A stretch of DNA of 14,251 nt from Armatimonadota bacterium (GCA_037443365.1 JBBIOM010000042.1:1-14251), one strand, 5' to 3'; positions 1,261 to 14,251 are shown, numbered from the stretch's first letter. Made by a program: numbers and translations. Notes: generated by a model not told the origin, from the letters alone.

Positions 1261-1270
1261 CAGCGTGGCG

Positions 1271-2548
1271 ATGATGCGGCCAAGAACCGGTCTTCCACTG
1301 TGCTGCCTTATGCCGGCCCTCGTGCTGCTCTGCCTGTTGGCTCTTGCGTCCCCCGCCGGCGTGCGCGGCGCGCCTTCCATCACGCTTGAGTTCTGGACCA
1401 TCTCGCTCCAGCCGTTCTTCAACGACTACGTGAACGGGGTCATCGCCGCATACGAGCGCGCCAACCCCGGTAGACGGATCCGCTGGGTGGACGTGCAGTT
1501 CGCCGCGGTTGAGCAGAAGCTGCTGGCCGCCCTGGCCGGGGGCGTGCCGCCCGACGTCGTCAACCTCAACACCGAGATGACCGCCCGGCTGGCCGAGCGG
1601 AACGCCCTTGTGGACATGGACGAGGCAGTCCCGGCCCAGGCCCGCGCCCGCTACTTCGACGGGCTATGGCGCTCCGGGCAGGTGCGCGGCCGCACCCACG
1701 CGCTGCCCTGGTACGTTGTGCCCAATGTGATCGCCTACAACACGGCGATCTACCGGCGGGCCGGCCTCAACCCTGTTGAGCCCCCGCGCACCGAGGAGGA
1801 GATGATCGCCCACGCGCGCACCATCCGGGACCGCACCAAAGTGTACGGGTTCATGCCCAACGTGGACGGGGTGCGCCTGCTGCACCGGTTCCAGGAGAAC
1901 GGCCTGCCGATCTTGAGTCCCGATGGGAAGCGGGCCGTGTTCAACTCGCCCGAGCACGTGCGCTACCTGACCCGCTACGCCGAGCTCCTGCGGGACGACT
2001 ACTTCCCCGAGGACACGCTGCGGCGAGGATACCTGGGCGCCACCGAGCGCTACAGCGGCGGCCAACTGGGGATGCTGGTCACCGGCCCCCAGTTCCTGCT
2101 GAGAGTGAAGAAGGACAACCCCGAGGTGTACGCGCAGACATTCGTGGCGGCCTACCCCAGGGGAGCGGGCAACACCCTGCACCTGTCCACGATGACCCTG
2201 GCGGTGCCCAGGTCGAGCCGCAACGCGGCCGCGGGCGTGGACTTCGCGCTCTTCGTCTCCAGCGACGAGAACCAGCTCGAGTTCTGCAAGCAGGTGGTTG
2301 TATTCCCCTCGACCCGACAGGCCGCCGCGGATCCGTTCTTCCGCCGCGGGGGCGCCGGTCCCGAGGACGTCGCCCGCAAGGTGGCCGCAGCCGACCTGCC
2401 CTATGCGCGCGACCTCAGCGTGATCGTCCCCAATGCCGGGGATCTCTTCCGCGTCTTCCGGGAGGCCGTGGAGAGCGCGTTCTACGGCAAGCGCACGCCG
2501 AAGGACGCGCTCGACTGGGCGGTCAGGCAGTGGAATGCGCGCCTCTAG
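1271..2548 (+). CDS. Carbohydrate ABC transporter (CUT1) substrate-binding protein
   Basis: Hydrophobic signal peptide, then ITLEFWT, KLLAALAGGVPPDVVNL, HALPWY..NVIAYN, YSGGQLGMLVTGP and a C-terminal TPKDALD..VRQWN. Start could be GTG 1265, ATG 1271, 1274 or 1310. Confidence 0.92.
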   Translation: MMRPRTGLPLCCLMPALVLLCLLALASPAGVRGAPSITLEFWTISLQPFFNDYVNGVIAAYERANPGRRIRWVDVQFAAVEQKLLAALAGGVPPDVVNLNTEMTARLAERNALVDMDEAVPAQARARYFDGLWRSGQVRGRTHALPWYVVPNVIAYNTAIYRRAGLNPVEPPRTEEEMIAHARTIRDRTKVYGFMPNVDGVRLLHRFQENGLPILSPDGKRAVFNSPEHVRYLTRYAELLRDDYFPEDTLRRGYLGATERYSGGQLGMLVTGPQFLLRVKKDNPEVYAQTFVAAYPRGAGNTLHLSTMTLAVPRSSRNAAAGVDFALFVSSDENQLEFCKQVVVFPSTRQAAADPFFRRGGAGPEDVARKVAAADLPYARDLSVIVPNAGDLFRVFREAVESAFYGKRTPKDALDWAVRQWNARL

Positions 2549-4745
2549 AGGTGCGATCCAGGGGCTGATCGCGTCCGCGCTCGGGATCGCCCTGGCGATC
2601 CTCCCGGCGCCCGTGCAGGCCCTGTCGGGGAGCGTGTGGCCCAACGCCTACGTCACGCCCCTGCGCGACGCGCGCATCATCCCGCTCCCCAAGTCGCTGC
2701 GGTATCTGGAAGAGGGCTTCGAGATCACGCCGGCGACACGGATCATAGTCGGCGACGATGCCGCCGCCGAGGATCTCTATGCCGCGCGCGAGCTGAACGA
2801 GGAACTGGCGGCCTGGGGCGCGCCGCCGCTTCAGGTCGTGCGTGCCTCTGCCGCGGGCGATCCCGCGCGCGCGGGAAGTGGACCGGGCTCAGGCGGGTGG
2901 CCCGCCGGAGGCGCCATCCTGCTCGGCGAGCCCGCGCTCAACCCCCTGGTGGCCGCGTCGCTCGCCGCGCACCGGATCACGGTGGACCCGCGTGATCCGG
3001 GGCCCGAGGGCTACCTGCTGCGCTCAAGCCCCGACGTGATCATAGCCGCCGGCGCCGATCGGCGAGGCACGTTCTACGCGGTGGCGACCCTGCGCCAGAT
3101 GATTGAGCGCGATCCGCGCGTCCCGGGCCGTCTGATCGTGCGCGGGGCCGAGGTGCGCGACTGGCCCGACCACCCGATTCGCGCGGTGCACGTCGTGCTC
3201 GACGGCCACTCCGACGTTCTCCACACCGCGCTGGTGGACCGCGTCTTCGGCCGCTACAAGTTCAACATGCTGATCGCCGAGTCCCAGTATGTCAGGTGGG
3301 AGAGCGCGCGCAACATCTGGCACCCCGGGGGCGCGACTCGAGCCCAGGCCGCGGCGGTGATCGCATCTGCCCGTGAGCACCTGATCGAGCCGGTCCCGCT
3401 CATCCAGACGCTCGGGCACTCGGGCTGGCTCTTTCACAACGACCAGAACCTCGACCTGCTCGAGATGCCCTCGGAGCTGGCACCGGCGCGGTTCGCCTAC
3501 GACCCGCTCAATCCACGGGTCTACGAGGTCGTGCTGCCGGTGCTGGACGAGGCGATAGCGCTGTTCGGCGCGCGCTTCCTCCACATCGGGCACGACGAGG
3601 TGCGCAACGTTGTGCCCTTCCCGTGGTCGGAGGAAGGCCGGCGCCTGGGCTTTGCCGAGCTGTTCGTGCGCGACACCGTGCGCCTCTACGACCACCTCAA
3701 GGCCCGGGGCGTAGGGACGATGATGTGGGGCGATGTGCTGCTCACCAACGAGTTCGCTCCGGAACTGGCGCGCCTGCCGCGCGACATCGTCGTGGTGGAC
3801 TGGCAGTACCACGCCGCGGCCCGCTATCCGAGCCTGGACCGTATCAGATCCTGGGGATTCCCGGTCCTGGCCGCCGCGTGGGACAGCCACGAGGGCATCG
3901 CGTCCCTGGCGCGCGACGCCCGACGCGCCGGCGCCTCCGGCATGGTCAGGACCACCTGGACCGGGTACTTCGGCAACCGGGGCGCGCTGGAATCATCCTA
4001 CCAGCAGATCTACAGTTACCTGCCTGCGGCCGACCACTTCTGGACGGCCGGCAGGGAGGGTCCCTCGCTGTCGCGCGTGGAGGCCGCGGCCAGGTTCCGC
4101 GAGGCCTGGATTCCGGTGCGCGAGGAACCGCGGGCAGTCCCCGGCCGCCCGCTGGACATCAGGGGCGTCGCCAACCACGCGCACACGGACGACGACGGCG
4201 CCGGGTGGCTCGGGAAGGGGCCCGACTACGATCTCCGGAATCTTCCCGCAGGAGAGACGCGCTTCGCCGGCGTGCTGTTTCGAGTGCTTGATCCCGCAGA
4301 GCGCCAAGGCCGCAGCATCGTGCTGCTGCGCGGTGCACGCCCCCCTGCCCGCGCCAAGCCCGAGCGCGTGGCGGTCGGCGCCGGGTTTGCCGCGGGCGCG
4401 TTGTGCTTCCTGCATGCCCTTCCCTACCCGGCCTCGCGCTTTGGCGAGGAGGTCGCCACCTACCGCGTCCGGTTCGCCGACGGCGGGGCCGCACAGATCC
4501 CTATCCGGTACCGCGTGAACATCGGTACGTGGCTGGATGATCCCATCTCGATCGGGCACGAGATCGGCTGGGCCGGCAAGACCCGATCAGGCGTGGATGT
4601 TCGGCTCTCGCTTCTCTGCTGGTCCAACCCGGACCCGGCGCGCCCCATGGTCGCGGTGGAACTGCAGGCCGCCGACGTCGCTTCGGCGCCGGCCGTCTTC
4701 GCCATCACCGCGCTGGAGCGCGACCGCGGCCCAAACATCAGGTAG
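2535..4745 (+). CDS. Secreted GH20 beta-N-acetylhexosaminidase with N-terminal GH20b domain and an extra C-terminal domain (736 aa)
   Basis: Signal peptide ending PVQA. GH20b motifs IIPLPK, EGYLL, GADRRGTFYAVATLRQ and VRDWPDHPIR. Catalytic-domain motifs VPLIQTLGH, HIGHDE (3582-3599), MMWGD and DWQY. ATG 2535 overlaps the upstream gene by 14 nt. Confidence 0.9.
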   Translation: MRASRGAIQGLIASALGIALAILPAPVQALSGSVWPNAYVTPLRDARIIPLPKSLRYLEEGFEITPATRIIVGDDAAAEDLYAARELNEELAAWGAPPLQVVRASAAGDPARAGSGPGSGGWPAGGAILLGEPALNPLVAASLAAHRITVDPRDPGPEGYLLRSSPDVIIAAGADRRGTFYAVATLRQMIERDPRVPGRLIVRGAEVRDWPDHPIRAVHVVLDGHSDVLHTALVDRVFGRYKFNMLIAESQYVRWESARNIWHPGGATRAQAAAVIASAREHLIEPVPLIQTLGHSGWLFHNDQNLDLLEMPSELAPARFAYDPLNPRVYEVVLPVLDEAIALFGARFLHIGHDEVRNVVPFPWSEEGRRLGFAELFVRDTVRLYDHLKARGVGTMMWGDVLLTNEFAPELARLPRDIVVVDWQYHAAARYPSLDRIRSWGFPVLAAAWDSHEGIASLARDARRAGASGMVRTTWTGYFGNRGALESSYQQIYSYLPAADHFWTAGREGPSLSRVEAAARFREAWIPVREEPRAVPGRPLDIRGVANHAHTDDDGAGWLGKGPDYDLRNLPAGETRFAGVLFRVLDPAERQGRSIVLLRGARPPARAKPERVAVGAGFAAGALCFLHALPYPASRFGEEVATYRVRFADGGAAQIPIRYRVNIGTWLDDPISIGHEIGWAGKTRSGVDVRLSLLCWSNPDPARPMVAVELQAADVASAPAVFAITALERDRGPNIR

Positions 4746-4756
4746 GGAGGGACGGC

Positions 4757-5770
4757 ATGGCGCTGGCAGGACGCGTTACAATCGAGCAGGTCGAGAGCCG
4801 GGCGCTGCAGGGCAACCCCCTGGGCGATCCGCACGTCCGCGAGATCCCGGTCTACCTTCCGCCGGGCTACGACGCCTCGGCGGCTTCCTACCCGGTCGTC
4901 TACTGGTTGCACGGCTTCACCGGGATCGGCCTCTCGGCCATCAACGCCGGCCCGTGGGTGCCGTCGCTCCCGGAGTGCATGGAGCGGGTCATCGCGTCGG
5001 GCGCGCCGCCCGCGATCCTGGTCATGGCCGACGGGTTCACGCGCTTCGGCGGCAGCCAGTATCTCAACTCCGAGGCCACGGGCCGCTACGAGGACTTCGT
5101 CTCTTCGGAACTCGTCGCTCACACCGATCGCCGGTTCAGGACCCTGGCGTCGCGCGCGCACCGCGGCATCGCCGGCAAGTCGAGCGGCGGCTACGGCGCG
5201 CTCGCACTCGCGATGCGCCACCCCGACATCTTTGGCGCCGCCGCGTCCCATAGCGGCGACATGCTCTTTGAGGCCTGCTACATGCCCGACTTCTGGAAGT
5301 TCTGCAACATCACGGCCAGGTACGGCGGGGTTGACGCGTTTCTGCGGGCGTTCCTCGAGATGCCGAAGAAGACCAACGATGCGGTCACCGCGGTCAACAT
5401 CGCCGCCATGGCCATGGCCTACTCGCCCAACCCGGCCCGGCTGCCGTGGCGCTTTGATCTCCCCTTTGACCCCCATACCGGCGCGATCAACGAGGCGGTA
5501 TGGACGCGCTGGCTTGCCTGGGATCCGGTGCGCATGGCGGAGCAGCACGTCGAGGCCCTGCGGTCGCTTGGGCTGCTCTACTTCGAGTGCGGCTCTCGCG
5601 ACCAGTACAACCTGCACCTGGGGGCCCGGCTCCTGCACCAGAAACTGGAGGCGCTGGGCGTCCGGCATGAGCACCAGGAGTTCGATGACGATCACGCAAG
5701 CATCAACTACCGGTACGTTGAGTCTCTGCAGCGGCTCTGCCGCGCGCTGGCAGGACAGCATGGGGACTGA
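4757..5770 (+). CDS. Alpha/beta-hydrolase serine esterase (Fes/putative esterase family), cytoplasmic
   Basis: VYLPPGY, YPVVYWLHG, nucleophile elbow GKSSGG (from 5174), candidate Asp (SRDQY) and His (DDDH). GGGAGG RBS at 4746-4751; no signal peptide. Confidence 0.9.
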   Translation: MALAGRVTIEQVESRALQGNPLGDPHVREIPVYLPPGYDASAASYPVVYWLHGFTGIGLSAINAGPWVPSLPECMERVIASGAPPAILVMADGFTRFGGSQYLNSEATGRYEDFVSSELVAHTDRRFRTLASRAHRGIAGKSSGGYGALALAMRHPDIFGAAASHSGDMLFEACYMPDFWKFCNITARYGGVDAFLRAFLEMPKKTNDAVTAVNIAAMAMAYSPNPARLPWRFDLPFDPHTGAINEAVWTRWLAWDPVRMAEQHVEALRSLGLLYFECGSRDQYNLHLGARLLHQKLEALGVRHEHQEFDDDHASINYRYVESLQRLCRALAGQHGD

Positions 5771-6698
5771 CCCCGGACCAAGGCCGGCCGGCCCAAGGCC
5801 CGCCGGCTGGCCAGGGGTCAGCCGGCGCCGGTGGCGGAGGGCCGCCACCGCGTACCTGTTCCTTGCGCCGGCGCTGCTGCTGCTGGGTGTCTTCACCTTC
5901 TACCCCGTGGCGTTCGGGACCGCGCTGAGCCTGTTCGAGTACGACGTCATCTCCCCGCCGCGCTTCGTGGGGCTGGAGCACTTCCGCGGGCTGTGGGACG
6001 ACCGCTTCCTGTGGATATCGCTTGCCAACTCGACCAAGTTCCTCCTGGTCGTGCCGGTGCTGCAGGCCCTCTCGATCGGGCTGGCGGTGGCGGTCAACGT
6101 GCCGCTTCGGGGCATCCGGTGGTTCCGCGCGGCGTACTACCTTCCGGTGGTCACCTCGATGGTCGTGGCCGGCCTGATGTGGCGGTGGCTGCTCGAGCAG
6201 GACGGCGTGGTGAACTACCTGCTTCGGGCGGTCGGGCTGCTCGACCGCCCGATCGCCTGGCTGGGGCACCCCGACCTGGCGCTCTACGCGGTCATGTTCG
6301 TGACGCTCTGGAAGGGCCTGGGGTACTACATGGTGATCTACCTGGCCGGGCTTCAGGCGATATCGCCGGAGTACGAGGAGGCGGCGACGACCGACGGCGC
6401 CTCTCGGTGGCAGGTGTTCCGCTGGGTGACCCTCCCGCTGCTGCGCCCCTCGATCCTCCTGGCGAGCACGATCTCGGCCATCGCGGCGCTGAAGGTATTC
6501 GAAGAAGTCTACGTAATGACCGCCGGGGGGCCGATGTTTCGGACCTACACGATGTTCTTCTACATCTTCGACAAGGGCTTCCAGCAGCTCGACCTCGGAT
6601 ACGCCGCGGCCCTGGCCGTTGTGCTGGCCGTCCTGGTGATGGCTCTCTCGACGGCCAACTTCCTCGTGTTCCGCAAGGGGGGGTGGAGCTATTACTAA
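5760..6698 (+). CDS. Carbohydrate ABC transporter permease (MalF/UgpA-like)
   Basis: AYLFLAPALLL, FVGLEHF, YYLPVVTS, WKGLGYYMVIYLAGLQ, EAA loop YEEAATTDGASRWQVF..VTLPLL, and F..VYVMT.GGP. ATG 5760 overlaps the esterase by 11 nt; the 5232 start in the track is a shadow extension. Confidence 0.92.
   Translation: MGTDPGPRPAGPRPAGWPGVSRRRWRRAATAYLFLAPALLLLGVFTFYPVAFGTALSLFEYDVISPPRFVGLEHFRGLWDDRFLWISLANSTKFLLVVPVLQALSIGLAVAVNVPLRGIRWFRAAYYLPVVTSMVVAGLMWRWLLEQDGVVNYLLRAVGLLDRPIAWLGHPDLALYAVMFVTLWKGLGYYMVIYLAGLQAISPEYEEAATTDGASRWQVFRWVTLPLLRPSILLASTISAIAALKVFEEVYVMTAGGPMFRTYTMFFYIFDKGFQQLDLGYAAALAVVLAVLVMALSTANFLVFRKGGWSYY
5778..5807 (+). repeat. 15-bp imperfect tandem duplication (CCAAGGCC[G/C]GCCGGC x2) encoding PRPAG-PRPAG
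   Basis: 5778-5792 and 5793-5807 differ at one position; in frame within the permease N-terminal tail. Confidence 0.7.
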
Positions 6699-6702
6699 CG
6701 CG

Positions 6703-7497
6703 GTGCGGTATGCCGGGCTCGGGGCCCTGGCCCTCGCCACCACCTTCCCGCTGCTCTGGCTGATCTCCATAGCCCTGCGCACCACCGGCAGCGTCTTCGG
6801 GTACCCGCCTCAGTTGCTGCCCTATCCCGCGTCGCTGGACAACTTCGTATCGGTTTGGCAGACGATGCCGCTCCCGCGCTTCTTCCTCAACACGATCGTG
6901 CTTGCCGGTGCCGCGGTGGCGCTCAACCTGGTGTTGTGCTCGATGGCCGCGTACCCGCTCGCGCGGATGGAGTTCCCAGGCCGGCGGGTGGTCTTGGCGC
7001 TGCTGCTCTCCACGCTGATGCTGCCCGGGCACGTGGGCCTGATCGTCAACTTCGTCACGCTGCTGCGCCTGCGCCTGATTGACACCTACCCCGGCGTGCT
7101 GTTGCCCGGCGCGGTCAGCGTCTTCGGGATCCTCCTGCTGCGGCAGGCGTTCCTGACCGTGCCCCGCGAGATGGAGGACGCCGCGCGCATGGACGGCGCC
7201 TCCGAGTGGACCATATGGTGGCGGGTCATGCTGCCGGTGATCTCCCCGGCGCTGGGAGTGCTGGCCCTCTTCGAGTTCGTGGCTGTGTGGAACTCGTTCC
7301 TTTGGCCGCTTATCGTGCTCAAGACACCTGACAAGTACCCGCTGGCGGTCGGGCTGCTCTACCTCTCGGGCCTGTTCGCGCACAACACGCGCGCCGTGGC
7401 AGCCGGCGCCGTGATGATGACCGCCCCGATCATCGCCGTCTTCCTGTTCACGCAGCGCTACTTCATGCGCGGCCTGACCATGGGGGCGATCCGGTGA
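6703..7497 (+). CDS. Carbohydrate ABC transporter permease (MalG/UgpE-like)
   Basis: FPLLW, FFLNT, MAAYPLARMEFPGR, EAA loop MEDAARMDGASEWTIWWRVMLP, WNSFLWPL and FLFTQRYFMRGLTMGAIR. Confidence 0.93.
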   Translation: MRYAGLGALALATTFPLLWLISIALRTTGSVFGYPPQLLPYPASLDNFVSVWQTMPLPRFFLNTIVLAGAAVALNLVLCSMAAYPLARMEFPGRRVVLALLLSTLMLPGHVGLIVNFVTLLRLRLIDTYPGVLLPGAVSVFGILLLRQAFLTVPREMEDAARMDGASEWTIWWRVMLPVISPALGVLALFEFVAVWNSFLWPLIVLKTPDKYPLAVGLLYLSGLFAHNTRAVAAGAVMMTAPIIAVFLFTQRYFMRGLTMGAIR

Positions 7498-9002
7498 GGC
7501 GCGTCCTGTTCCTGCCGCTCGATGACCGGCCGGCGACGCGCGAGACCGTGCTGGACCTGCTGCCGCTGCTGGGCGCACCGTGGGCTACGCCACCTCGCGA
7601 CCTGCTTGGGCACCGACGCCGCCCGGCCGACCTGGACGCCCTGTTCCGCTGGGCCGAGCGCGAGGCCGCGTCTTCGGGTGCCATGATCGCCTCGGCCGAG
7701 ATTCTCATACACGGAGGCCTGGTGCCCTCGCGCCTAAGTGCGGACCCGATGGAGGTCCTCTGGCGGCGGCTGGACCGGCTGGCCCGGCTGGCGGCCCGCG
7801 TGCCGACCTACCTCGGCGCGATCGTCCCGCGCATCCCTTCCGGGGGCGCGGCCGAGGAGCCGTCCTACTGGGAGCCGTACGGCGACCTGCTGCGCACTTA
7901 TTCGGCCTGCCTGGATGCCGGCGAGCAGACCGGCAACGAGATCAGATACCGGCGGGCCATGGAAGCGCTGGACGGCGTGCCCGCCGCCGTGGTGGACGAC
8001 CTGCTGCGCCGCCGCCGCCGGCAGTTGCTGGTGAACCTAGAGCTGCTCGAGATGGCCTCGCGCGGCGGCCTGGCAGCGCTGCTCATCGGGCAGGACGACG
8101 CCGAGCCGCACGGTCTCGCGAGGGCCGACCTGGCGGTTCTGCGCCGGTTCTGCGGGCGCCAGGGCGGCGGCCGCGCCCAGGTCTCGGTCGGCGCCGACGA
8201 GCTCGGCGCCCGGCTGCTGGCGCGCCTCGCCAACGACGCGGCCGGCCGCGCGCCCCGCGTGTGCGTGCGCTACACCTTCCCCGAGGCGCGGCGCAGCGTG
8301 CCGCGCTACGAGCCGGCTCCGATCGAAGAGACCGTCGCCGAGCACCTGGCCGCATCCGGTTGCGAGATCACGGACGACTCCCCGGAGATGCTGCTGTGGG
8401 TGCACAACTTCTCGGGCGCCGCGCAGCGCGAGGCGTCAGATCAGCGGGGCGCGCCTCCCGCGCCCGTGCGCACGGTGGCCGCCGCGCTGGCCGAGGCCGC
8501 ATCGCGCGGAATCGTCTGCGGATGCGCTGACGTGCGCTTCGCCAACGGCGCCGACGACTCGCTCGTCCGCTCGCTGCTCGCGCGCGAGAACCTGGCTGGC
8601 CTGGCCGGCTACGCCGGGTGGAACACCTCCAGCAACAGCCTGGGCACCGTGATCGCGCAGACCGTGCTGTTCTGTCACGCCCGAGGACAGCTCGGCGAGA
8701 TGCGCCTGCGCCAGCTGCGGCGGCGCTACCTGCTGCGGCGGCTCCTGGATGACTGGGGATACCAGGCGCTCGTGCGTCCCTACCTGGCGCGCGAGGTCGC
8801 GCCGTCGCTGGGCGCGAACCCATCGAGCCTGGGCCCGCACGCGGCGGCGGTGCGCGAGGCGGCGATGGCGCGCCTGCAGGAAGAGGCACTGGCGCCGCTG
8901 GGCCGCGCGCTCGGCCCCTGCGCGCTTGAGAGGGTCGCGTTCCCGTGGGACCGGCTGTTTGAGGTGGAGATGGTGCTCTCCGATGACCTCCAAGGGCCCT
9001 GA
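7494..9002 (+). CDS. DUF4127 family protein (502 aa)
   Basis: Family-typical motifs LPLDDRP, GGLVPSR, GQDD, GADE, DVRFANGAD, YAGWNTSSNSLG, LLDDWGYQ and FPWDRLFE. GTGA overlap with the permease stop. Confidence 0.85.
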   Translation: MRRVLFLPLDDRPATRETVLDLLPLLGAPWATPPRDLLGHRRRPADLDALFRWAEREAASSGAMIASAEILIHGGLVPSRLSADPMEVLWRRLDRLARLAARVPTYLGAIVPRIPSGGAAEEPSYWEPYGDLLRTYSACLDAGEQTGNEIRYRRAMEALDGVPAAVVDDLLRRRRRQLLVNLELLEMASRGGLAALLIGQDDAEPHGLARADLAVLRRFCGRQGGGRAQVSVGADELGARLLARLANDAAGRAPRVCVRYTFPEARRSVPRYEPAPIEETVAEHLAASGCEITDDSPEMLLWVHNFSGAAQREASDQRGAPPAPVRTVAAALAEAASRGIVCGCADVRFANGADDSLVRSLLARENLAGLAGYAGWNTSSNSLGTVIAQTVLFCHARGQLGEMRLRQLRRRYLLRRLLDDWGYQALVRPYLAREVAPSLGANPSSLGPHAAAVREAAMARLQEEALAPLGRALGPCALERVAFPWDRLFEVEMVLSDDLQGP

Positions 9003-10347
9003 TGTCGCGGTGATCGGAGGCGGGCCCGCGGGCATCGTGGCCGCCGTGGCCGCGGCGCGCGCGGGCTCCCGCGTTACCCTGGTCGAGCGCTACGGCTTCC
9101 TGGGCGGCGCGCTGACAGCCGCGCTCGTGGCGCCGATGATGGGCTTCCACGCCGGGGATCGGCAGGTGGTGGCCGGCATCCCCGAGGAGATCGTGGGACG
9201 GTTGCGCTCGATCGGCGCCTCGCCTGGGCACGTGCCCGACCCGATTGACTTCTGCCACACGGTGACGCCGTTCGATCACGAAGGCCTGCGGCGCGTGCTG
9301 CTGGAGATGGCCGCGGAGGCCGGTGTGGAGCTGTGGCTGCACAGCGTGTTCCTCGACGCCCAGGCCGACTCAGGGGTCGTGCAGGCCGCCCGCATCTGGC
9401 AGAAGGACGGCGCGAAGGAGCTGCGCGCGCGGGTGTTCGTGGACGCCTCGGGCGACGGCGACCTCTCTGTGGCCGCCGGGGCCTCTGCCGAAATCGGGCG
9501 CGCCGCGGACCACCTTACTCAGCCGATGACGCTTGTGTTCCGGCTGGGCGGGGTGGACTGGCCCGCTGTGATGGAACACCTCGAACGGCATCCCGACGAT
9601 ATACAGCACGGCCAGGGAGTCCGCGATCGCATTGACATCGAGTGGCTTGCGGGGCTGCCCTGCCGCGGGTTCGCCGGCTTCGGGGCCGCCGTGCGCGAGG
9701 CGCGCGAGTGCGGGGAGTGGACCGTCCCGCGCGACCGGCTGCTCGTCTTCGAGGGCAGGCGCCCCGGCGAGGCCATCGTGAACACGACGCGCGTGCTTGA
9801 CCGGAGCGGGATCTCGGGCGAGGATCTCTCGCGGGCCGAGATCGAGGGCCGCCGACAGGCGTATCAGGTAGCGGAGTTCCTCCAGAGGCGGGTCCCCGGC
9901 TTCGCGGACGCGTACATCCTGGAGACACCGGCGCAGATCGGCGTGCGCGAGACGCGGCGCATCAGAGGCGACTACGTCCTGACCGCGGAAGACGTCCTGG
10001 GCGCACGCAAGTTCGACGACGCCATCGCGGCCGGCGCCTATCCGGTGGATATCCACGATCCTGCCTCGGACCGCCTGCAGGTGCGGCGTCTGCCCGAGGG
10101 CGAGTACTACACGATCCCCTACCGCTGCCTGCTGCCCCGCGGCGGAGCGAACTGGCTGGTAGCCGGCAGGTGCATCTCGGCCACGCACGAAGCGTTCGCC
10201 GCGCTTCGCGTGTCGGCCATCGTGATGGCGATCGGCCAGGCCGCCGGCACCGCGGCAGCGATGGCCGCGCTCGGGGGCATGCCCCCGCGCCAGGTGGATC
10301 CACGCAGCCTCCGCCAGGCCCTGCGAGATGCAGGGGCATTCGTGTAG
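8983..10347 (+). CDS. FAD-dependent oxidoreductase (FAD_oxidored / PF12831-type, 454 aa)
   Basis: DVAVIGGGPAG Rossmann motif, VERYGFLGG, FVDASGDGD, IGVRETRRIRGDY, YPVDIH, YTIPYRCLLP, AGRCISATHEA and MAIGQAAG. ATG 8983 overlaps DUF4127 by 20 nt. Confidence 0.9.
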   Translation: MTSKGPDVAVIGGGPAGIVAAVAAARAGSRVTLVERYGFLGGALTAALVAPMMGFHAGDRQVVAGIPEEIVGRLRSIGASPGHVPDPIDFCHTVTPFDHEGLRRVLLEMAAEAGVELWLHSVFLDAQADSGVVQAARIWQKDGAKELRARVFVDASGDGDLSVAAGASAEIGRAADHLTQPMTLVFRLGGVDWPAVMEHLERHPDDIQHGQGVRDRIDIEWLAGLPCRGFAGFGAAVREARECGEWTVPRDRLLVFEGRRPGEAIVNTTRVLDRSGISGEDLSRAEIEGRRQAYQVAEFLQRRVPGFADAYILETPAQIGVRETRRIRGDYVLTAEDVLGARKFDDAIAAGAYPVDIHDPASDRLQVRRLPEGEYYTIPYRCLLPRGGANWLVAGRCISATHEAFAALRVSAIVMAIGQAAGTAAAMAALGGMPPRQVDPRSLRQALRDAGAFV

Positions 10348-10361
10348 GCCTGGTGCAGCCG

Positions 10362-11033
10362 ATGACTGACCCGCTAGCGCGCCGCGGCATCCTGATCGTC
10401 AGCCTGCCGCGCAACGACGGCGGGCTTGCGCGCGCGGCCGCCGAAGCAGGGGCCGACATGCTCAAGGTCCACGTAAACGTCCACCACCGCGCCTCGGGGG
10501 AGCGCTTCGGATCGCTGGATGAAGAGGAGGAAGGCCTGGAGGCGGTTCTGCGTGTCGGCCTTCCTACCGGGCTCGTGCCCGGGGAGGAGGCGATGGTGGC
10601 GCTTGAGCAGCTCCCGCGGCTGCGCCGGTTCGCGTTTCTCGACGCCTACGTCACGCGGCTGCCCCTGTTCCTCTACGATGCCGGCGTGCCGGTGATCCCG
10701 GCGGTGCCGCACGACTATCCGCCGGAGATGCTGGGGTCGCTGGGCGCGCTGCCCGGCGACTGGCTGGAGGCGGCGCTCGTTCCGCCGCACTGCTACGGCC
10801 TCGACCCCACAGCCGACGACCTTGTCGCCCTCGCACGCTTGGGGGCGCTCACCCGCCGGCGTTTGATCGTGCCCAGCCAGCGCCGCATCCGTCCCGAAGA
10901 CCTGGTACGTTACCTCGAGATCCCGGAGGTGTGGGCGATGATGATCGGTGTCGTGGTGACCGGTCGCACGGCGCGGGGCATCGGCCGTGCCACAAGTGCG
11001 TTCCGGCTCGCATTGGACGCGCTGCTCCGATGA
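10362..11033 (+). CDS. Conserved hypothetical protein, probable ribulose-phosphate-binding TIM barrel (NanE-like, 223 aa)
   Basis: LIVSLPRND..LARAAAEAGADMLKVHVNVHHRASG at the N-terminus and IVPSQRRIRPEDL...AMMIGVVVTG at the C-terminus. It fills the gap between neighbours and its stop overlaps the next start (ATGA). Alternative GTG at 10353. The gene is solid; the fold call is inference. Confidence 0.7.
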   Translation: MTDPLARRGILIVSLPRNDGGLARAAAEAGADMLKVHVNVHHRASGERFGSLDEEEEGLEAVLRVGLPTGLVPGEEAMVALEQLPRLRRFAFLDAYVTRLPLFLYDAGVPVIPAVPHDYPPEMLGSLGALPGDWLEAALVPPHCYGLDPTADDLVALARLGALTRRRLIVPSQRRIRPEDLVRYLEIPEVWAMMIGVVVTGRTARGIGRATSAFRLALDALLR

Positions 11034-12037
11034 TAGTCGAGGCCACATCACCCACCCGCGTTGACCTGGCCGGCGGCACGCTTGACATCCATCCGCTGTA
11101 CCTGATGGAGGAGGACGTCTGGACGCTGAACGCCGCGATTGAGATACCGGTCCGCGTGCGCCTCGCGCGGGCCCGGGCCGGCTTCCTGATCGTCTCGACG
11201 GACCTGCGGGAGCGCATCGAGGCCCCGGATCTGGACTCCCTGCCGAGCGGCGGGGCGCTGGAACCGGCCTGCCGCGCCTTGCGCTTTGTTGCGCCGCGAG
11301 CGGGCCTGGCCGTGACGTTGCGATCCGCGGCGCCGCCTGGTTCAGGGCTAGGCGCCTCGTCTGCGCTCCTGCTGACGCTGCTGGCGGCACTCCACCGGTG
11401 GACGCGGCGTGCGTTCAGCCGTGACGGCCTGGTTGGATTGGCCTGGCGCCTGGAGGCGCAGTCCCTGCGCACGCTGACCGGCCGCCAGGACTACCTGGCG
11501 GCCGCGTACGGCGGCGTCAACGCCATACGGTTCGGCGCCGACGGAGACCATGTTGAGCCCCTGTTCCGCGGTGCCGCGGCGCGCCGGGCGCTGCAGGACC
11601 GCCTGGTCGTAGCGTACACCGGCCTGCCGCATCGCTCAGGGCCGACCAACTGGGAGATCGTGCGCTCGTACCTGGACGGGACCCCACAGACCGTTCAGCA
11701 TCTGCGCGCCATCGCGCAGACGGCGCGCGCCATGCGCGACGCCCTGCGCGAGCGCGACCTCGACGCCGCCGGTGGACTCGTGGCGCGTGAGTGGACGCAC
11801 CGGCGCGAGCTATCGCCGGGCGTTTCCACCCCGCGAATAGAAGAGGCACTCGCGGTTGCGCGCCGCGCCGGCGCGATCGGGGGCAAGGCGTGCGGCGCGG
11901 GCGGCGGCGGGTCCGTGCTCATCTTCACGCGCGAGGGCGGCAGGCAGTCGTGCGAGCGTGCGCTGCGCGCGGCCGGATTCACCGTGCTGCCCGCCCGGAT
12001 CGCTTCACGCGGTCTTCACGTGCGCACCGTGCTATAG
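11030..12037 (+). CDS. GHMP-family sugar kinase (HddA/fucokinase-like, 335 aa)
   Basis: PTRVDLAGGTLD (motif I), PPGSGLGASS (ATP-binding motif II), GRQD and KACGAGGGG (motif III). ATGA overlap with the upstream gene. Confidence 0.9.
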   Translation: MIVEATSPTRVDLAGGTLDIHPLYLMEEDVWTLNAAIEIPVRVRLARARAGFLIVSTDLRERIEAPDLDSLPSGGALEPACRALRFVAPRAGLAVTLRSAAPPGSGLGASSALLLTLLAALHRWTRRAFSRDGLVGLAWRLEAQSLRTLTGRQDYLAAAYGGVNAIRFGADGDHVEPLFRGAAARRALQDRLVVAYTGLPHRSGPTNWEIVRSYLDGTPQTVQHLRAIAQTARAMRDALRERDLDAAGGLVAREWTHRRELSPGVSTPRIEEALAVARRAGAIGGKACGAGGGGSVLIFTREGGRQSCERALRAAGFTVLPARIASRGLHVRTVL

Positions 12038-12047: not shown

Positions 12048-13208
12048 ATGTCCCTGCGTACCGACCGCACGCTCCACCTGATCTTCGCCTCGCTCTTCTT
12101 CTGGATGTTTGGAATTGGGCTCTACGAGCAGCTCATACCGATCTACGCCCGTCAGCTCGGCGCGTCGCCCGTGCAGCTAGGGACCCTCTTCACGGTGCGC
12201 CACATCGCCCTGGCCGGGGGCTTCCTGATCGGCTGGATGATGGCCGATCACCAGAACCGCCGCGCGGTGGTCGTCGCCTCGTGGCTGGCCGCGACCCCGG
12301 TGCCGCTGCTGCTGGCCGCGGCGCCGACCTACGGGTGGCTGGTGCCCGGGCTGCTGCTCTACGAGATTACCTATTTCGGGATGCCCGCGCTGCAGGCGTT
12401 CATGGCGCGGCGCGTGCCTGCCTCCGAGCTGGCCTCGGCGTTCGGAGCCATGGGCACCATCACCTCGCTCGGATTCCTCGTATCGCCGACCGTCGGCGGG
12501 GCCCTCGCCGACCGCTACGGTATCAGGGCGACCCTGCTCATCGCAGCGGCGTTCTACGTGCTGTCCACCTTTCTGATCCTCCGGGTCAGGTGGAACGATG
12601 CCGGTGCCCCGGTCCCCGAGGCACCTGGGCGTCTTTCGATGGCGCAGGTGCGCGATCTATTGCCTCTACTCTGGATCTACTCGCTGATGCTGCTGGTGGT
12701 GCTTATCACCATCCCGTTCGGCACGCCGTTCCTGCGCGAGGTGCGAGGCCTGTCGCTGGCCGAAATAGGCTTCCTCGGCTCGATGGTGGCGCTGGGCGCG
12801 GTGCTGCTGACCCCGGTGGCCGGCCGGCTCGGCGACCGGATCGGGCTGCTGCCCACGCTGTCCGGGAACCTTGGCGTGTTCGCGCTGGGGATGCTCCTCA
12901 CGGTGTACGGGCCTGCCGGGCTCCTTCCGGCCGCGGCCATGATTCGCTGCCGCTCTCCCCTGCAGACCCTGGGACAGGCGCTGCTCGGGGCGCGGACCCC
13001 GCCTCGCGTTCTTGGGCGGGTCTTCGCCCTGGGAGGAATCCTGTCCTCGATACTGGGCGCGGCCGCGGCGTTCTTCGGGGGGTACGCCTACCGGGCGGAC
13101 CCGGCGCTGCCGTTGTTGATCTCTGTGGGGATGGCAGGGGCACTCGCCGTGGCCCTGGTCTGGTGGCGCCCTCGTGTCTCCCGCGCCGACGCCGCGGACC
13201 CGGCGTGA
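12048..13208 (+). CDS. Major facilitator superfamily transporter (386 aa)
   Basis: Multiple hydrophobic segments, PIYARQLGASPVQLG, motif-A-like GWMMADHQNRR and GRLGDRIG, and SPTVGGALADRYG. Confidence 0.88.
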   Translation: MSLRTDRTLHLIFASLFFWMFGIGLYEQLIPIYARQLGASPVQLGTLFTVRHIALAGGFLIGWMMADHQNRRAVVVASWLAATPVPLLLAAAPTYGWLVPGLLLYEITYFGMPALQAFMARRVPASELASAFGAMGTITSLGFLVSPTVGGALADRYGIRATLLIAAAFYVLSTFLILRVRWNDAGAPVPEAPGRLSMAQVRDLLPLLWIYSLMLLVVLITIPFGTPFLREVRGLSLAEIGFLGSMVALGAVLLTPVAGRLGDRIGLLPTLSGNLGVFALGMLLTVYGPAGLLPAAAMIRCRSPLQTLGQALLGARTPPRVLGRVFALGGILSSILGAAAAFFGGYAYRADPALPLLISVGMAGALAVALVWWRPRVSRADAADPA

Positions 13209-14251
13209 CGACAGAGGAGCGCATCAGGTCGCGCGCCCGCGAGCTGGGCTTCGATCTTGTGGGCATTGCCCCGCCCGGATCACTGCGCCCTCCGGTGCGC
13301 TCGATCGTCTCCGTGGCTATGAACTACCACGCCGGTGGGCCTGCGCTCCCCTGCGGAGGCGACCTGCGTGGGCGCATCGCGCGGTTCGCCCGGGGTGATG
13401 ATTACCATCTGGTGGTGGGCGCACGCCTCAGGAAGTTGTGCGGCTTCCTCGTGGAGTGCGGCGCGCGCGTGGCGCGGCCATATGTGGACGCCGGACCGCT
13501 GTTCGAGCGCGCGATCGCCCAGCAGGCCGGCCTGGGCTGGCGCGGCCGCAACTCCTGCCTGATCACAGGGGGGTTTGGCTCATGGGTCGTGCTCGGAGAG
13601 ATCACGACCGACCTGGCGCTGCGGCCCGACGCGTCGGCCTCGGGCGACTGCGGTTCCTGCGAGGCCTGCATGCGTGGAGAGGCGGCCTGTCCCACCGGCG
13701 CCATCTTCGCGCCCGGGATCGTGGACGCCCACCGGTGCATCGCCTACTGGACCATCGAGCATCGTGGCTGGATCCCGCTCGATGTGCGCCCAATGCTGCA
13801 AGACATGATCTTTGGATGCGACATCTGCCAGGAGGTCTGCCCCCGTAACAGGGCGCCTGAGTCCGTGGCGGCGCATCCCGAGTTCGCGCCTCGCCCCGAG
13901 ATCGGCGCCCACCCGCGCTTGCTGCCGTTGCTAGGCATCGGGGAGGATGAGTTCCGCCGCCTCTTCCGCCGCAGCGGGATCAAGCGCGCCGGCAGGCGCG
14001 GGCTGCGGCGCAACGTCGCCGTTGCGCTTGGCAACGCCGGCGATGCCAGAGCCGTCCCCGACCTGGCGCTGGCGCTGCGCGACCCCGAGGATCCGGTCCT
14101 GCGCGGGCATGCGGCCTGGGCCCTGGGCCGCATCGGCGGGTCCTGTGCGTCGGATGCGCTCCGCGACGCGCGCGCCTGCGAGGAGGACCCCCGGGTGCGC
14201 GAGGAGATATTCGCGGCGCTCGAGGCGTCGAGCGCCGCGGGGCAGCAGCGA
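13205..14251 (+). CDS. queG: Epoxyqueuosine reductase QueG with C-terminal HEAT repeats (3'-truncated by window; atypical N-terminus)
   Basis: GTG 13205 (GTGA overlap with the MFS stop); open for 349 codons to the window end. Motifs ARELGFDLVGIA, RSIVSVAMNY, GRIARFARGDDYH, YVDAGPLFERAIAQQAGLGWRGRN, GSWVVLGEI, CGSCEAC...CPTGAI, DAHRCIAYWTIE, FGCDICQEVCPRN, RRNVAVALGN and RGHAAWALGRIG. Confidence 0.93.
   Translation, partial: MTTEERIRSRARELGFDLVGIAPPGSLRPPVRSIVSVAMNYHAGGPALPCGGDLRGRIARFARGDDYHLVVGARLRKLCGFLVECGARVARPYVDAGPLFERAIAQQAGLGWRGRNSCLITGGFGSWVVLGEITTDLALRPDASASGDCGSCEACMRGEAACPTGAIFAPGIVDAHRCIAYWTIEHRGWIPLDVRPMLQDMIFGCDICQEVCPRNRAPESVAAHPEFAPRPEIGAHPRLLPLLGIGEDEFRRLFRRSGIKRAGRRGLRRNVAVALGNAGDARAVPDLALALRDPEDPVLRGHAAWALGRIGGSCASDALRDARACEEDPRVREEIFAALEASSAAGQQR

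Follow-up and report, generated by a model that had tools for sequence, protein, structure and literature searches.

A conserved Armatimonadota operon with an uncharacterised three-enzyme core, probably concerned with the use of cell-wall-type amino-sugar glycans

What does a bacterium gain from a gene cluster that joins a secreted glycosidase and a sugar importer to enzymes of orphan families? The question is raised by a 14,251-nucleotide (nt) stretch of DNA from an Armatimonadota bacterium (GCA_037443365.1, JBBIOM010000042.1:1-14251), here called the window, in which a secreted glycoside hydrolase family 20 (GH20) enzyme and a CUT1 ATP-binding cassette (ABC) importer are encoded together with five cytoplasmic enzymes: a serine esterase, a DUF4127 protein, a flavoprotein, a barrel of phosphate-binding type and a GHMP kinase. 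Bacteria recycle peptidoglycan sugars, and we know of no route for the bacterial turnover or scavenging of linkage units made of N-acetylmannosamine (ManNAc) and N-acetylglucosamine (GlcNAc) or of the pyruvylated secondary cell-wall polymers that anchor S-layers. We present evidence that the cluster is a genuine operon, conserved and belonging to a known general kind, whose core of three enzymes (the barrel, the DUF4127 protein and the flavoprotein) is uncharacterised, and that this trio probably marks an undescribed step in the use of cell-wall-type amino-sugar glycans. The source is a hot-spring Armatimonadota-type bacterium with an assembly of 69 contigs and 2.2 Mb that is 97.7% complete; its relatives in public records are Armatimonadota metagenome-assembled genomes (MAGs), for example 'Candidatus Fervidifonticultor', and the G+C content of the window is about 70%. 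The nine genes of the cluster are as follows.

1265-2548, + strand: CUT1-type solute-binding protein (SBP) with an N-terminal signal- or lipoprotein-like leader (Pfam SBP_bac_1, 1.4e-26)
2535-4745, + strand: secreted GH20-type hexosaminidase (Glyco_hydro_20b 1.5e-14, Glyco_hydro_20 1.1e-7)
4757-5770, + strand: cytoplasmic PF00756 serine esterase, esterase D / CE1-like (Pfam Esterase, 1.9e-23)
5760-6698, + strand: ABC permease 1, UgpA/MalF-like (BPD_transp_1 2.1e-15; UgpA-like 1.2e-27, under the equivalog cut-off)
6703-7497, + strand: ABC permease 2, UgpE/MalG-like (BPD_transp_1 9.4e-11; UgpE-like 3.3e-29, under the cut-off)
7494-9002, + strand: cytoplasmic DUF4127 protein (PF13552 4.9e-116, 388.6 bits)
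8983-10347, + strand: PF12831 oxidoreductase dependent on flavin adenine dinucleotide (FAD) (FAD_oxidored 1.2e-125, 420.5 bits)
10362-11033, + strand: (beta/alpha)8 barrel of 223 residues, without a Pfam match, with a fold of the ribulose-phosphate-binding type
11030-12037, + strand: GHMP kinase (GHMP N domain 3e-11, C domain 1.6e-11)

Open reading frames (ORFs), junctions and Pfam matches at 1265-12037 bear out the nine co-oriented, tightly packed genes described in an earlier first-pass annotation of this DNA. From the binding protein to the kinase the junctions measure -14, +11, -11, +4, -4, -20, +14 and -4 nt, the start of the flavoprotein gene overlapping the DUF4127 gene by 20 nt. Gene starts were chosen rather than measured, as the first start codon agreeing with homologues; the start of the SBP gene at 1265 differs from the 1271 given earlier, which is an ATG two codons further in. 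In the translations, hydrophobic leaders are found on the binding protein and the GH20 enzyme; the other enzymes have none.

Gene neighbourhoods were collected by tblastn with the window proteins (E<=1e-5 or 1e-6, coverage >=40%, one genome per species) as two sets. Set 1 was seeded with DUF4127 and comprises the best 80 of 340 confirmed stretches, or 79 distinct loci; set 2 was seeded with the barrel, by means of a 10-sequence alignment, and comprises the best 80 of 177 loci, drawn from Armatimonadota, Clostridia, Bacilli, Erysipelothrix, Treponema, Coriobacteriales, Propionibacteriaceae, Margulisiibacteriota, Planctomycetales, Anaerolineae, Cloacimonadota, Riflebacteria and others. As a good number of the loci are short contigs, the presence counts are lower bounds. 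The DUF4127-seeded loci contain the permease pair (51/79), the flavoprotein (42/79), the binding protein (32/79), NanE (27/79), a MurR/RpiR-type regulator (22/79), a PF00756 esterase (19/79), a ROK protein (18/79), GHL10 (15/79), the barrel (14/79), the GHMP kinase (12/79), GH20C (12/79) and GH20 (11/79), with one or the other of GH20 and GH20C in 23/79. Among the barrel-seeded loci, DUF4127 is present in 51/80, the flavoprotein in 39/80, the GHMP kinase in 3/80 and NanE in 0/80.

These genes are also physically close, adjacency being defined as a gap of at most 300 nt on the same strand. In set 2 the barrel adjoins DUF4127 in 34 of the 46 loci that hold both, and DUF4127 adjoins the flavoprotein in 19 of 24; the corresponding figures in set 1 are 27 of 40 for DUF4127 with the flavoprotein and 19 of 27 for NanE with DUF4127. 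Wherever barrel and GHMP kinase occur together they are neighbours (12/12 in set 1, 3/3 in set 2). Gene order is retained over considerable distances: three loci (L101-L103) keep the order SBP-GH20-permeases-DUF4127-flavoprotein-barrel at 42-71% identity, and three Armatimonadota-like MAGs (L031, L033 and L037, DUF4127 identity 42-50%) have SBP-GH20-esterase-permeases-DUF4127-...-flavoprotein-...-barrel-kinase with genes inserted. Among 41 related genomes DUF4127 is found in 34 and the barrel in 23, and in 18 of these 23 a kinase orthologue lies directly beside the barrel (32/39, 21/39 and 16/21 when the unpublished genomes G015 and G024 are left out).

The barrel, DUF4127 and the flavoprotein thus constitute a conserved core, a module distributed across many phyla and conserved whether or not GH20 is present and whether the transporter is of the phosphotransferase system (PTS), ABC or secondary type. 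Frequent companions of this core are the ABC importer and GH20, and the full set of nine is not invariant. The esterase is kept mostly within the lineage, a different PF00756 protein occurring in Bacillota, and the GHMP kinase is a lineage-specific addition. The earlier proposal that all nine genes serve one pathway therefore stands in part: the trio recurs far beyond the lineage, whereas the full array, with the kinase in 3/80 and 12/79 loci, does not. Co-occurrence across phyla was found for DUF4127 and the barrel, two of the three families to whose neighbourhoods the first-pass annotation had pointed, and the third, the kinase, proved to be confined to the lineage.

The companions of the trio in other bacteria point to its chemistry. 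In Bacillus sp. HNG, Pfam annotation gives the order RpiR-DUF624-SBP-two permeases-DUF4127-flavoprotein-GHL10/DUF4985-NanE-ROK-esterase-GH20C; in Lachnoclostridium phytofermentans GH20C, an unassigned protein and two permeases are followed by flavoprotein-DUF4127-NanE-RpiR-...-GHL10. A Deinococcus plasmid carries SBP-GH20 domain protein-hypothetical-two permeases-FAD oxidoreductase-DUF4127, with nagZ adjoining. NanE and the barrel are distributed in set 1 without overlap: NanE only in 27 loci, the barrel only in 14, both in 0, DUF7916 only in 1 and none of these in 37. Two annotated plasmids reduce the arrangement further and lack the flavoprotein: pCAR50 of Carnobacterium has NanE-HAD hydrolase-DUF4127-PTS IIC-MurR/RpiR, and a Priestia megaterium plasmid has ROK-acetylxylan esterase-DUF4127-ROK-ManA-PTS-NanE-MurR/RpiR. 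The annotated records of all three plasmids bear out the association independently. On pCAR50 DUF4127 is the sole candidate for an enzyme that turns the PTS product into a NanE substrate, and we infer that it forms ManNAc or ManNAc-6-P out of a precursor brought in by import. The barrel would then stand in for NanE, and the flavoprotein, frequent yet dispensable since the PTS-type loci on both plasmids are without it, would perform an accessory step. In Bacillota, NanE and a ROK kinase replace the barrel and the GHMP kinase.

The recurrence of NanE, ROK, RpiR, GH20/GH20C and esterase partners ties the output of these loci to ManNAc-6-P/GlcNAc-6-P, and the link to N-acetylhexosamines drawn in the first-pass annotation is upheld by the GH20/GH20C, NanE, ROK and RpiR partners across loci. 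We are fairly confident that the cluster is an amino-sugar glycan utilisation unit. With confidence a little above even, we further propose that the window encodes an operon for the uptake and processing of a substituted N-acetyl-amino-sugar glycoside from a cell-envelope glycan, with ManNAc as the product line. In the proposed route GH20 would release from a wall polymer a short fragment that contains GlcNAc; this fragment would most likely be of the ManNAc-beta-1,4-GlcNAc type found in SLH-anchoring secondary cell-wall polymers or the linkage units of teichoic acids. The importer would take up the fragment and the esterase would strip its O-acyl groups. The central cleavage, with release of ManNAc or ManNAc-6-P, would then fall to DUF4127, either as a novel beta-N-acetylmannosaminidase or by removal of an acidic substituent, in the manner of MurQ on the 6-phosphate of N-acetylmuramic acid (MurNAc). 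Finally, the kinase would phosphorylate the product and the barrel would convert the sugar phosphate so that it can feed, by way of the genome's NagA, into GlcNAc-6-P metabolism.

More tentatively, DUF4127 might represent a new class of carbohydrate-active enzyme, unlike solved glycosidase folds, that acts on free or 6-phosphorylated beta-ManNAc glycosides or removes an acidic substituent, and that forms with the flavoprotein and the barrel the first described route for the breakdown or recycling of a ManNAc wall polymer. That it is specifically a glycosidase for beta-ManNAc we regard as possible and somewhat doubtful. The occurrence of the trio in more than 10 phyla, beside amino-sugar transporters and ManNAc/GlcNAc enzymes, makes it a testable candidate for missing wall-glycan chemistry; if the proposal is true, a function would be assigned to a Pfam DUF, to a barrel family so far without annotation and to the PF12831 flavoproteins, which abound in bacteria that degrade glycans. 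The small annotated versions on plasmids of culturable Carnobacterium and Priestia ease such tests.

The rest of the genome bears on which glycan is involved. The families of NagA, NagB, NagK, MurQ, AnmK and NanA are unmatched by the 12 window ORFs, as the first-pass annotation had remarked of the canonical downstream genes; this absence applies to the window only, and the genome as a whole holds murQ, anmK and nagA (contigs C5, C24 and C35). MurQ (329 bits, over the cut-off) and AnmK lie side by side on C5. NagA is on C24, over the cut-off, adjoined by a GH3 NagZ-like gene and a gene of the major facilitator superfamily (MFS), with ROK nearby. A second locus of amino-sugar type, on C35 (L095:7019-16922), which holds no DUF4127, has a NagA-like amidohydrolase, a true NanE whose ORF is longer by about 190 residues at the N-terminus, an ABC importer with SBP and permease, a SIS_2 protein, two M55 D-aminopeptidases and two xylose-isomerase-like barrels, and looks like a muropeptide or amino-sugar-peptide route. 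NagB (PF01182) was not found in the 97.7%-complete assembly. With AnmK-MurQ, NagZ-NagA, ROK and NanE encoded elsewhere, the cluster is no substitute for missing peptidoglycan recycling and serves something else or something additional, and the peptidoglycan unit named in the first-pass annotation as an example of the substrate is correspondingly weakened. The genome also carries TagA/WecG, MnaA (a UDP-GlcNAc 2-epimerase), a CsaB-like pyruvyltransferase and SLH-domain proteins, parts such as a ManNAc-containing, pyruvylated secondary cell-wall polymer requires. Because of these genes a ManNAc-containing wall polymer, either the cell's own or a neighbour's, is the preferred substrate, on circumstantial grounds.

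As a substrate, MurNAc from peptidoglycan is less probable than a glycan that bears ManNAc, and its use can be envisaged as a variant of peptidoglycan recycling. An imported MurNAc fragment (GlcNAc-MurNAc, an anhydro form or an O-acetylated one) would lose its lactyl ether through DUF4127 and/or the flavoprotein, and a C2-scrambling elimination or an oxidative ether cleavage would yield a ManNAc/GlcNAc phosphate to be corrected by NanE or the barrel. We consider this unlikely. It would be redundant beside the MurQ-AnmK, NagZ-like GH3-NagA and ROK of the genome; NanE is not needed in known MurNAc chemistry; and no stem-peptide amidase or peptidase is found among the window ORFs. It draws support from the MurR/RpiR-type regulators in 22/79 DUF4127 loci, from one Armatimonadota-like MAG locus with the order SBP-permeases-DUF4127-GNAT-GH3, from a Margulisiibacteriota trio that lies amid murG-murC-murB and Glycos_transf_4, and from the PTS, DUF4127 and RpiR genes of pCAR50, an arrangement akin to MurP-MurQ-MurR. 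It is kept alive, at the expense of the ManNAc proposal, by the presence of GHL10, reportedly the family of the Clostridioides difficile peptidoglycan lytic transglycosylase Cwp19, in 15/79 DUF4127 loci. Two further ideas, the opening of a muramic-delta-lactam by a hydantoinase-like partner and an oxidative cleavage of the lactyl ether by the flavoprotein, were dropped when nothing was found in their support.

The GH20 enzyme and the importer bring a chitin-derived substrate into consideration. GH20 enzymes share the motif H-x-G-x-D-E with an adjacent catalytic Asp-Glu pair. The window enzyme matches GH20b with 55.3 bits (cut-off 26.1) and the catalytic domain with 32 bits (cut-off 22.3); its HIGHDE aligns with HVGLDE of 9fyl, the Asp-Glu pair being kept, and about 250 C-terminal residues are without assignment. 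Its best solved relatives are 9fyl/9fym (2.7e-14) and the lacto-N-biosidase 8hvb (3.3e-12). The structures 9fyl-9fyo are disaccharide-releasing GH20s (PMC11776370), and the window enzyme is possibly disaccharide-releasing as well, to judge by the ranking of its sequence matches. With the lacto-N-biosidases and N-acetyllactosaminidases LnbB, TrdeGH20 and TrpyGH20 (PMC11776370) it has in common the Asp-Glu pair as well as the catalytic and GH20b domains, and they are its best solved matches; it differs in that the similarity is low (E 1e-14 to 1e-12) and in a context that is of the bacterial-wall type rather than that of milk or mucin glycans.

Among solved structures the binding protein is closest to Synechococcus MsBP (6wpm; E 3.4e-57 over the full length). 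The cleft of MsBP is positively charged, phosphorylated sugars are its preferred ligands and it showed no affinity for GlcNAc, while chitobiose is the ligand predicted for the family from KEGG similarity (PMC8938411). ABC_tran had no match in the 12 window ORFs, so the operon has no MalK/MsiK-type ATPase; the 11 TOBE_2 matches elsewhere in the genome make a shared importer ATPase plausible. The esterase (84 bits, cut-off 22) has an intact G-x-S-x-G motif in the form GKSSG and no leader; its solved relatives are 8z91, labelled 'Esterase' (8.4e-39), followed by ferulic acid esterases and CE1. No paper on 8Z91 was found in the literature searched.

An ordinary chitobiose/GlcNAc locus, serving chitin oligomers through GH20 and a ChiE-like binding protein, with the uncharacterised genes as passengers or as enzymes for minor side products, could account for part of these data: GH20 enzymes release beta-GlcNAc, the KEGG-based prediction (PMC8938411) assigns chitobiose to the binding-protein family, and the NgcE model gives a faint match of 0.0099. 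We nevertheless judge it very unlikely, since the trio is kept with or without GH20 and beside any of PTS, ABC and secondary transporters, NagZ, NagA and ROK are encoded elsewhere in the genome, and the partnership with NanE would be left unexplained; the lack of GlcNAc affinity in MsBP (PMC8938411) also argues against it. With the chitobiose/GlcNAc ABC systems NgcEFG and predicted ChiE, accompanied by GH20 or GH3, the window shares a CUT1 importer, an ATPase encoded elsewhere and GH20, but the closest solved relative of its binding protein does not bind GlcNAc (PMC8938411), its GH20 is nearest to disaccharide-releasing members, and it has three extra conserved enzymes without a role in chitin use.

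The kinase has the ATP motif P-x-G-S-G-L-G-x-S-S-A, as PPGSGLGASSA in the translation. Against the NCBIfam equivalogs it scores 97.6 bits for HddA (cut-off 600) and 90.4 for fucokinase (cut-off 721), both below the cut-offs, and its best solved relatives are the heptose-7-P kinases 3k85 and 4n3o, WcbL (4usk) and fucokinase. By these scores it is a relative within the HddA/fucokinase clade of anomeric kinases and not an equivalog member of either. Salvage rather than catabolism is to be considered, in which the GHMP kinase would phosphorylate an imported amino sugar at C1, the trio would do the trimming or conversion, and the sugar would go back into wall-polymer synthesis as a nucleotide sugar. 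The anomeric nature of the nearest characterised kinase relatives (HddA-type heptose-7-P kinases, WcbL, fucokinase) speaks for it, as do the fusion of DUF4127 to GrpB in 8 of the 120 homologues listed, the position of DUF4127 beside TagA, an LCP ligase and SLH in Desulforadius, and the trio amid mur genes in the Margulisiibacteriota MAG. No nucleotidyltransferase is present in the window, however; catabolic loci are where a secreted glycosidase is usually found together with importer and esterase; the partners in other phyla are NanE, ROK, RpiR and PTS; and the kinase is limited to this family of genomes. Taken together, these points make salvage quite unlikely.

The first-pass annotation had called the product of the gene just upstream of the kinase a TIM barrel, and an AlphaFold2 model (pLDDT 97.1) has the (beta/alpha)8 fold. 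The protein has no Pfam family at E<=0.1. Its family numbers 251 cluster representatives at E<=1e-3 among 1.84 billion, with no Pfam model; barrel clusters in the ESM Atlas are likewise without Pfam assignment, one of them automatically named 'N-acylglucosamine-6-phosphate 2-epimerase', which is a lead only. Weak NanE (PF04131) matches occur in 5 of 91 family members, the best at 8.7e-4, and comparison of the barrel with an alignment of 14 NanE sequences by hhalign gave 96% probability (E 4.7e-9, 207 columns). The glycine-rich loops at the C-terminal strands resemble those of phosphate-binding barrels, and the family has a motif of its own, K35-V-H37-x-N-V-x-H42. The best fold matches are BX1/TrpA (Z 19.3) and KGPDC (17.9), with PdxJ and KDPG aldolases also found; NanE chains are not among the 50 fold-match rows shown, which does not exclude them. 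Judged by profile comparison the barrel is a new family, homologous to NanE and not a member of it; an epimerase is our guess at its activity, and an aldolase is also possible. Beside this family stands one further observation: in Allofournierella massiliensis (L065:13098-14051) a DUF7916 protein (E 4.6e-129) lies near DUF4127 at the position of NanE or the barrel, weak DUF7916 matches occur in 2/91 barrel-family members, and DUF7916 is possibly a third alternative barrel.

DUF4127 matches PF13552 over its full length (profile positions 1-488 of 489), and its AlphaFold2 model is of high quality (pLDDT 94.4, pTM 0.94). The profile had no match at E<=10 among PDB sequences, and an ESM Atlas search for relatives outside PF13552 gave nothing usable. 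Twenty-nine residues are invariant in 27 aligned sequences from several phyla, 7 Arg and 6 Asp among them; they include D10, R12, R80, R113, R174, D201, D202, D235, D346, N351, W376, N377, R416, D420, R428, W485 and R487. So many invariant Arg, Asp, Trp and Tyr residues would fit an anionic sugar ligand. The GrpB domain fused to DUF4127 homologues is a predicted nucleotidyltransferase; longer fused forms were not found in single-protein and alignment searches, which is weak evidence. DUF4127, PF13552 and N-acetylmannosaminidase went without mention in the literature searched, about 1.7 million PMC articles and subscription journals lying outside the search. In six genomes (G025, G031, G034, G037, G046 and G050, family f2) the DUF4127 match falls into two pieces, profile positions 2-128 and about 175-488, tens of bases apart, and the helical segment 129-174 seems to be missing or altered in this subgroup.

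The flavoprotein is matched over PF12831 profile positions 1-416 and has a GxGxxG-type dinucleotide motif, VIGGGPAG, near its N-terminus; its matches among PDB sequences span the N-terminal FAD-binding stretch only. A predicted complex of the flavoprotein with DUF4127 scored 0.00 (mark 0.32), which is evidence neither way.

A number of observations weigh against the proposed ManNAc route. To begin with its enzymes, the core families are orphans, as the first-pass annotation had maintained, and to our knowledge DUF4127, PF12831 and the barrel family have no characterised member. The whole DUF4127 model reaches a TM of at most 0.26 in Foldseek, with GH1/GH5 chains at 0.17-0.20 only, and a VIA search finds a flavodoxin- or receiver-like region at residues 229-402 with a best Z of 9.7 over 113/502 residues, near the stated background of the tool. 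In the barrel, the invariant lysine of NanE, which we take to be catalytic, is absent and aligns with the conserved P of GIVPG; with TrpA/BX1, KGPDC, PdxJ and KDPG aldolases as its best fold matches, the barrel need not be an epimerase. The relatives of the kinase phosphorylate the anomeric carbon and not C6, so nucleotide-sugar salvage fits this enzyme as well as catabolism does. An anion site shared with MsBP was only half borne out in the window's binding protein: of the four site residues mutated in MsBP, D173 and F248 are kept (2/4), while R125 is replaced by N and R228 by L.

The genomic evidence has contrary points of its own. The loci of the census are non-independent, with several per genus, and 37 of the 79 DUF4127 loci, some on short contigs and some in wall-biogenesis contexts, have neither NanE nor the barrel. 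In a sample of the phylum TagA is present in 60/60 genomes and DUF4127 in 50/60 (58/58 and 48/58 without G015 and G024); this pattern does not discriminate. The Desulforadius locus, TagA-LCP-DUF4127-SLH with two flavoproteins and DUF5693, is a wall-biogenesis context. In the Margulisiibacteriota MAG (L125:3237-14756) the trio runs in one direction, with murG-murC-murB, a restriction-modification pair and glyQ upstream and Glycos_transf_4 (MraY/WecA-type) downstream, a neighbourhood of wall synthesis rather than catabolism. Finally, a hydantoinase-like ATPase and a CitMHS/DctM-like protein accompany the barrel in other clades. They hint at a monomeric organic anion as the substrate there and at another ATP-dependent enzyme in the position of the kinase, which complicates the proposal.

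The ManNAc proposal can also be set against known systems. Gram-positive nan clusters (NanA, ROK-type NanK, NanE, RpiR, an ABC importer and a sialate esterase) have in common with the window an importer, an esterase, a kinase and, at the position of NanE, a small phosphate-binding barrel, and the Bacillota DUF4127 loci share NanE, ROK and RpiR themselves. The window differs in that its ORFs include no NanA-type lyase or sialidase, with GH20, DUF4127 and the flavoprotein instead; its barrel is not of the NanE family, and its kinase is GHMP and not ROK. Of the systems for peptidoglycan amino sugars, we take MurP-MurQ-MurR, AnmK/NagZ (Escherichia coli, Bacillus subtilis) and MurP-MupG (Staphylococcus aureus) to be comparable. 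The Mur and AnmK-NagZ recycling systems share the logic of importing a substituted sugar or disaccharide, one dedicated cleaving enzyme, RpiR and an output to GlcNAc-6-P, and the layout of PTS, DUF4127 and RpiR on pCAR50 is similar to the Mur type. In the present case, however, MurQ and AnmK are encoded elsewhere in the genome, DUF4127, with 0 matches at E<=10 among PDB sequences, shows no sequence relationship, and the partnership with NanE points to a manno-configured product.

The borders of the unit are set by its recurrence and not by its spacing. All twelve genes of the window, by ORF listing and translations, are on the + strand with hardly any spacing, and three lie outside the cluster.

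11-1195, + strand: PP-loop ATPase, with weak LarE/NAD synthase-like matches far under the cut-offs
12048-13208, + strand: MFS transporter (MFS_1 5.3e-35), a possible trailing member, unproven
from 13205, + strand: tRNA epoxyqueuosine reductase QueG (293 bits, over the cut-off), with C-terminal HEAT repeats

Close packing extends past the kinase, with +10 nt between the kinase and MFS genes and -4 nt between MFS and QueG. As these genes are equally tight, the unit cannot be delimited by spacing alone, and it is co-occurrence across phyla that delimits it. Synteny within the family takes in the entire array, PP-loop, MFS and QueG genes included, which says little about function. A scan for promoters and terminators gave two promoter-like and three terminator-like sites, not above shuffles and none at the borders of the unit. 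One might accordingly suppose that the genes are not one pathway at all, being neighbours through tight packing in a small genome, with synteny in the family as a sign of recent common descent; the equally tight and syntenic flanking genes and the want of an above-shuffle signal marking the unit would agree with this. Same-order subsets in distant phyla (L101-L103 at 42-71% identity and the Deinococcus plasmid) contradict it, and the PP-loop and QueG neighbours are absent from these distant recurrences. For the core this explanation is largely refuted, and overall we find it highly improbable. The MFS gene, syntenic in the family, is also so in L033/L037 at 41-42% identity and occurs in 3/80 barrel-seeded loci. 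The PP-loop ATPase gene lies 69 nt upstream of the binding protein gene, is syntenic in the family only, and encodes about 70 low-complexity N-terminal residues.

Other proteins were seen repeatedly beside the trio. A Hydantoinase_A/Hydant_A_N protein of 700-950 residues, an ATPase, adjoins it in 19/80 barrel loci (e.g. L124:7591-9885, L126, L134 and L138) and is present in 0/79 DUF4127-seeded loci; it may act in the kinase's stead, or its task may be to open a lactam or a cyclic intermediate. A membrane protein family of 430 residues accompanies the trio in 18/80 barrel loci (L126:13744-15051, L124:6416-7705, L138:17084-18385). Its faint CitMHS/DctM likeness (E about 5e-3) is under the cut-offs; the family may provide secondary transport, of anion type, for the substrate that the trio acts on. 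In L033 a DAO-family flavoprotein and a serine hydroxymethyltransferase (12593-13864 and 15357-16691) are inserted among DUF4127, the PF12831 flavoprotein and the barrel.

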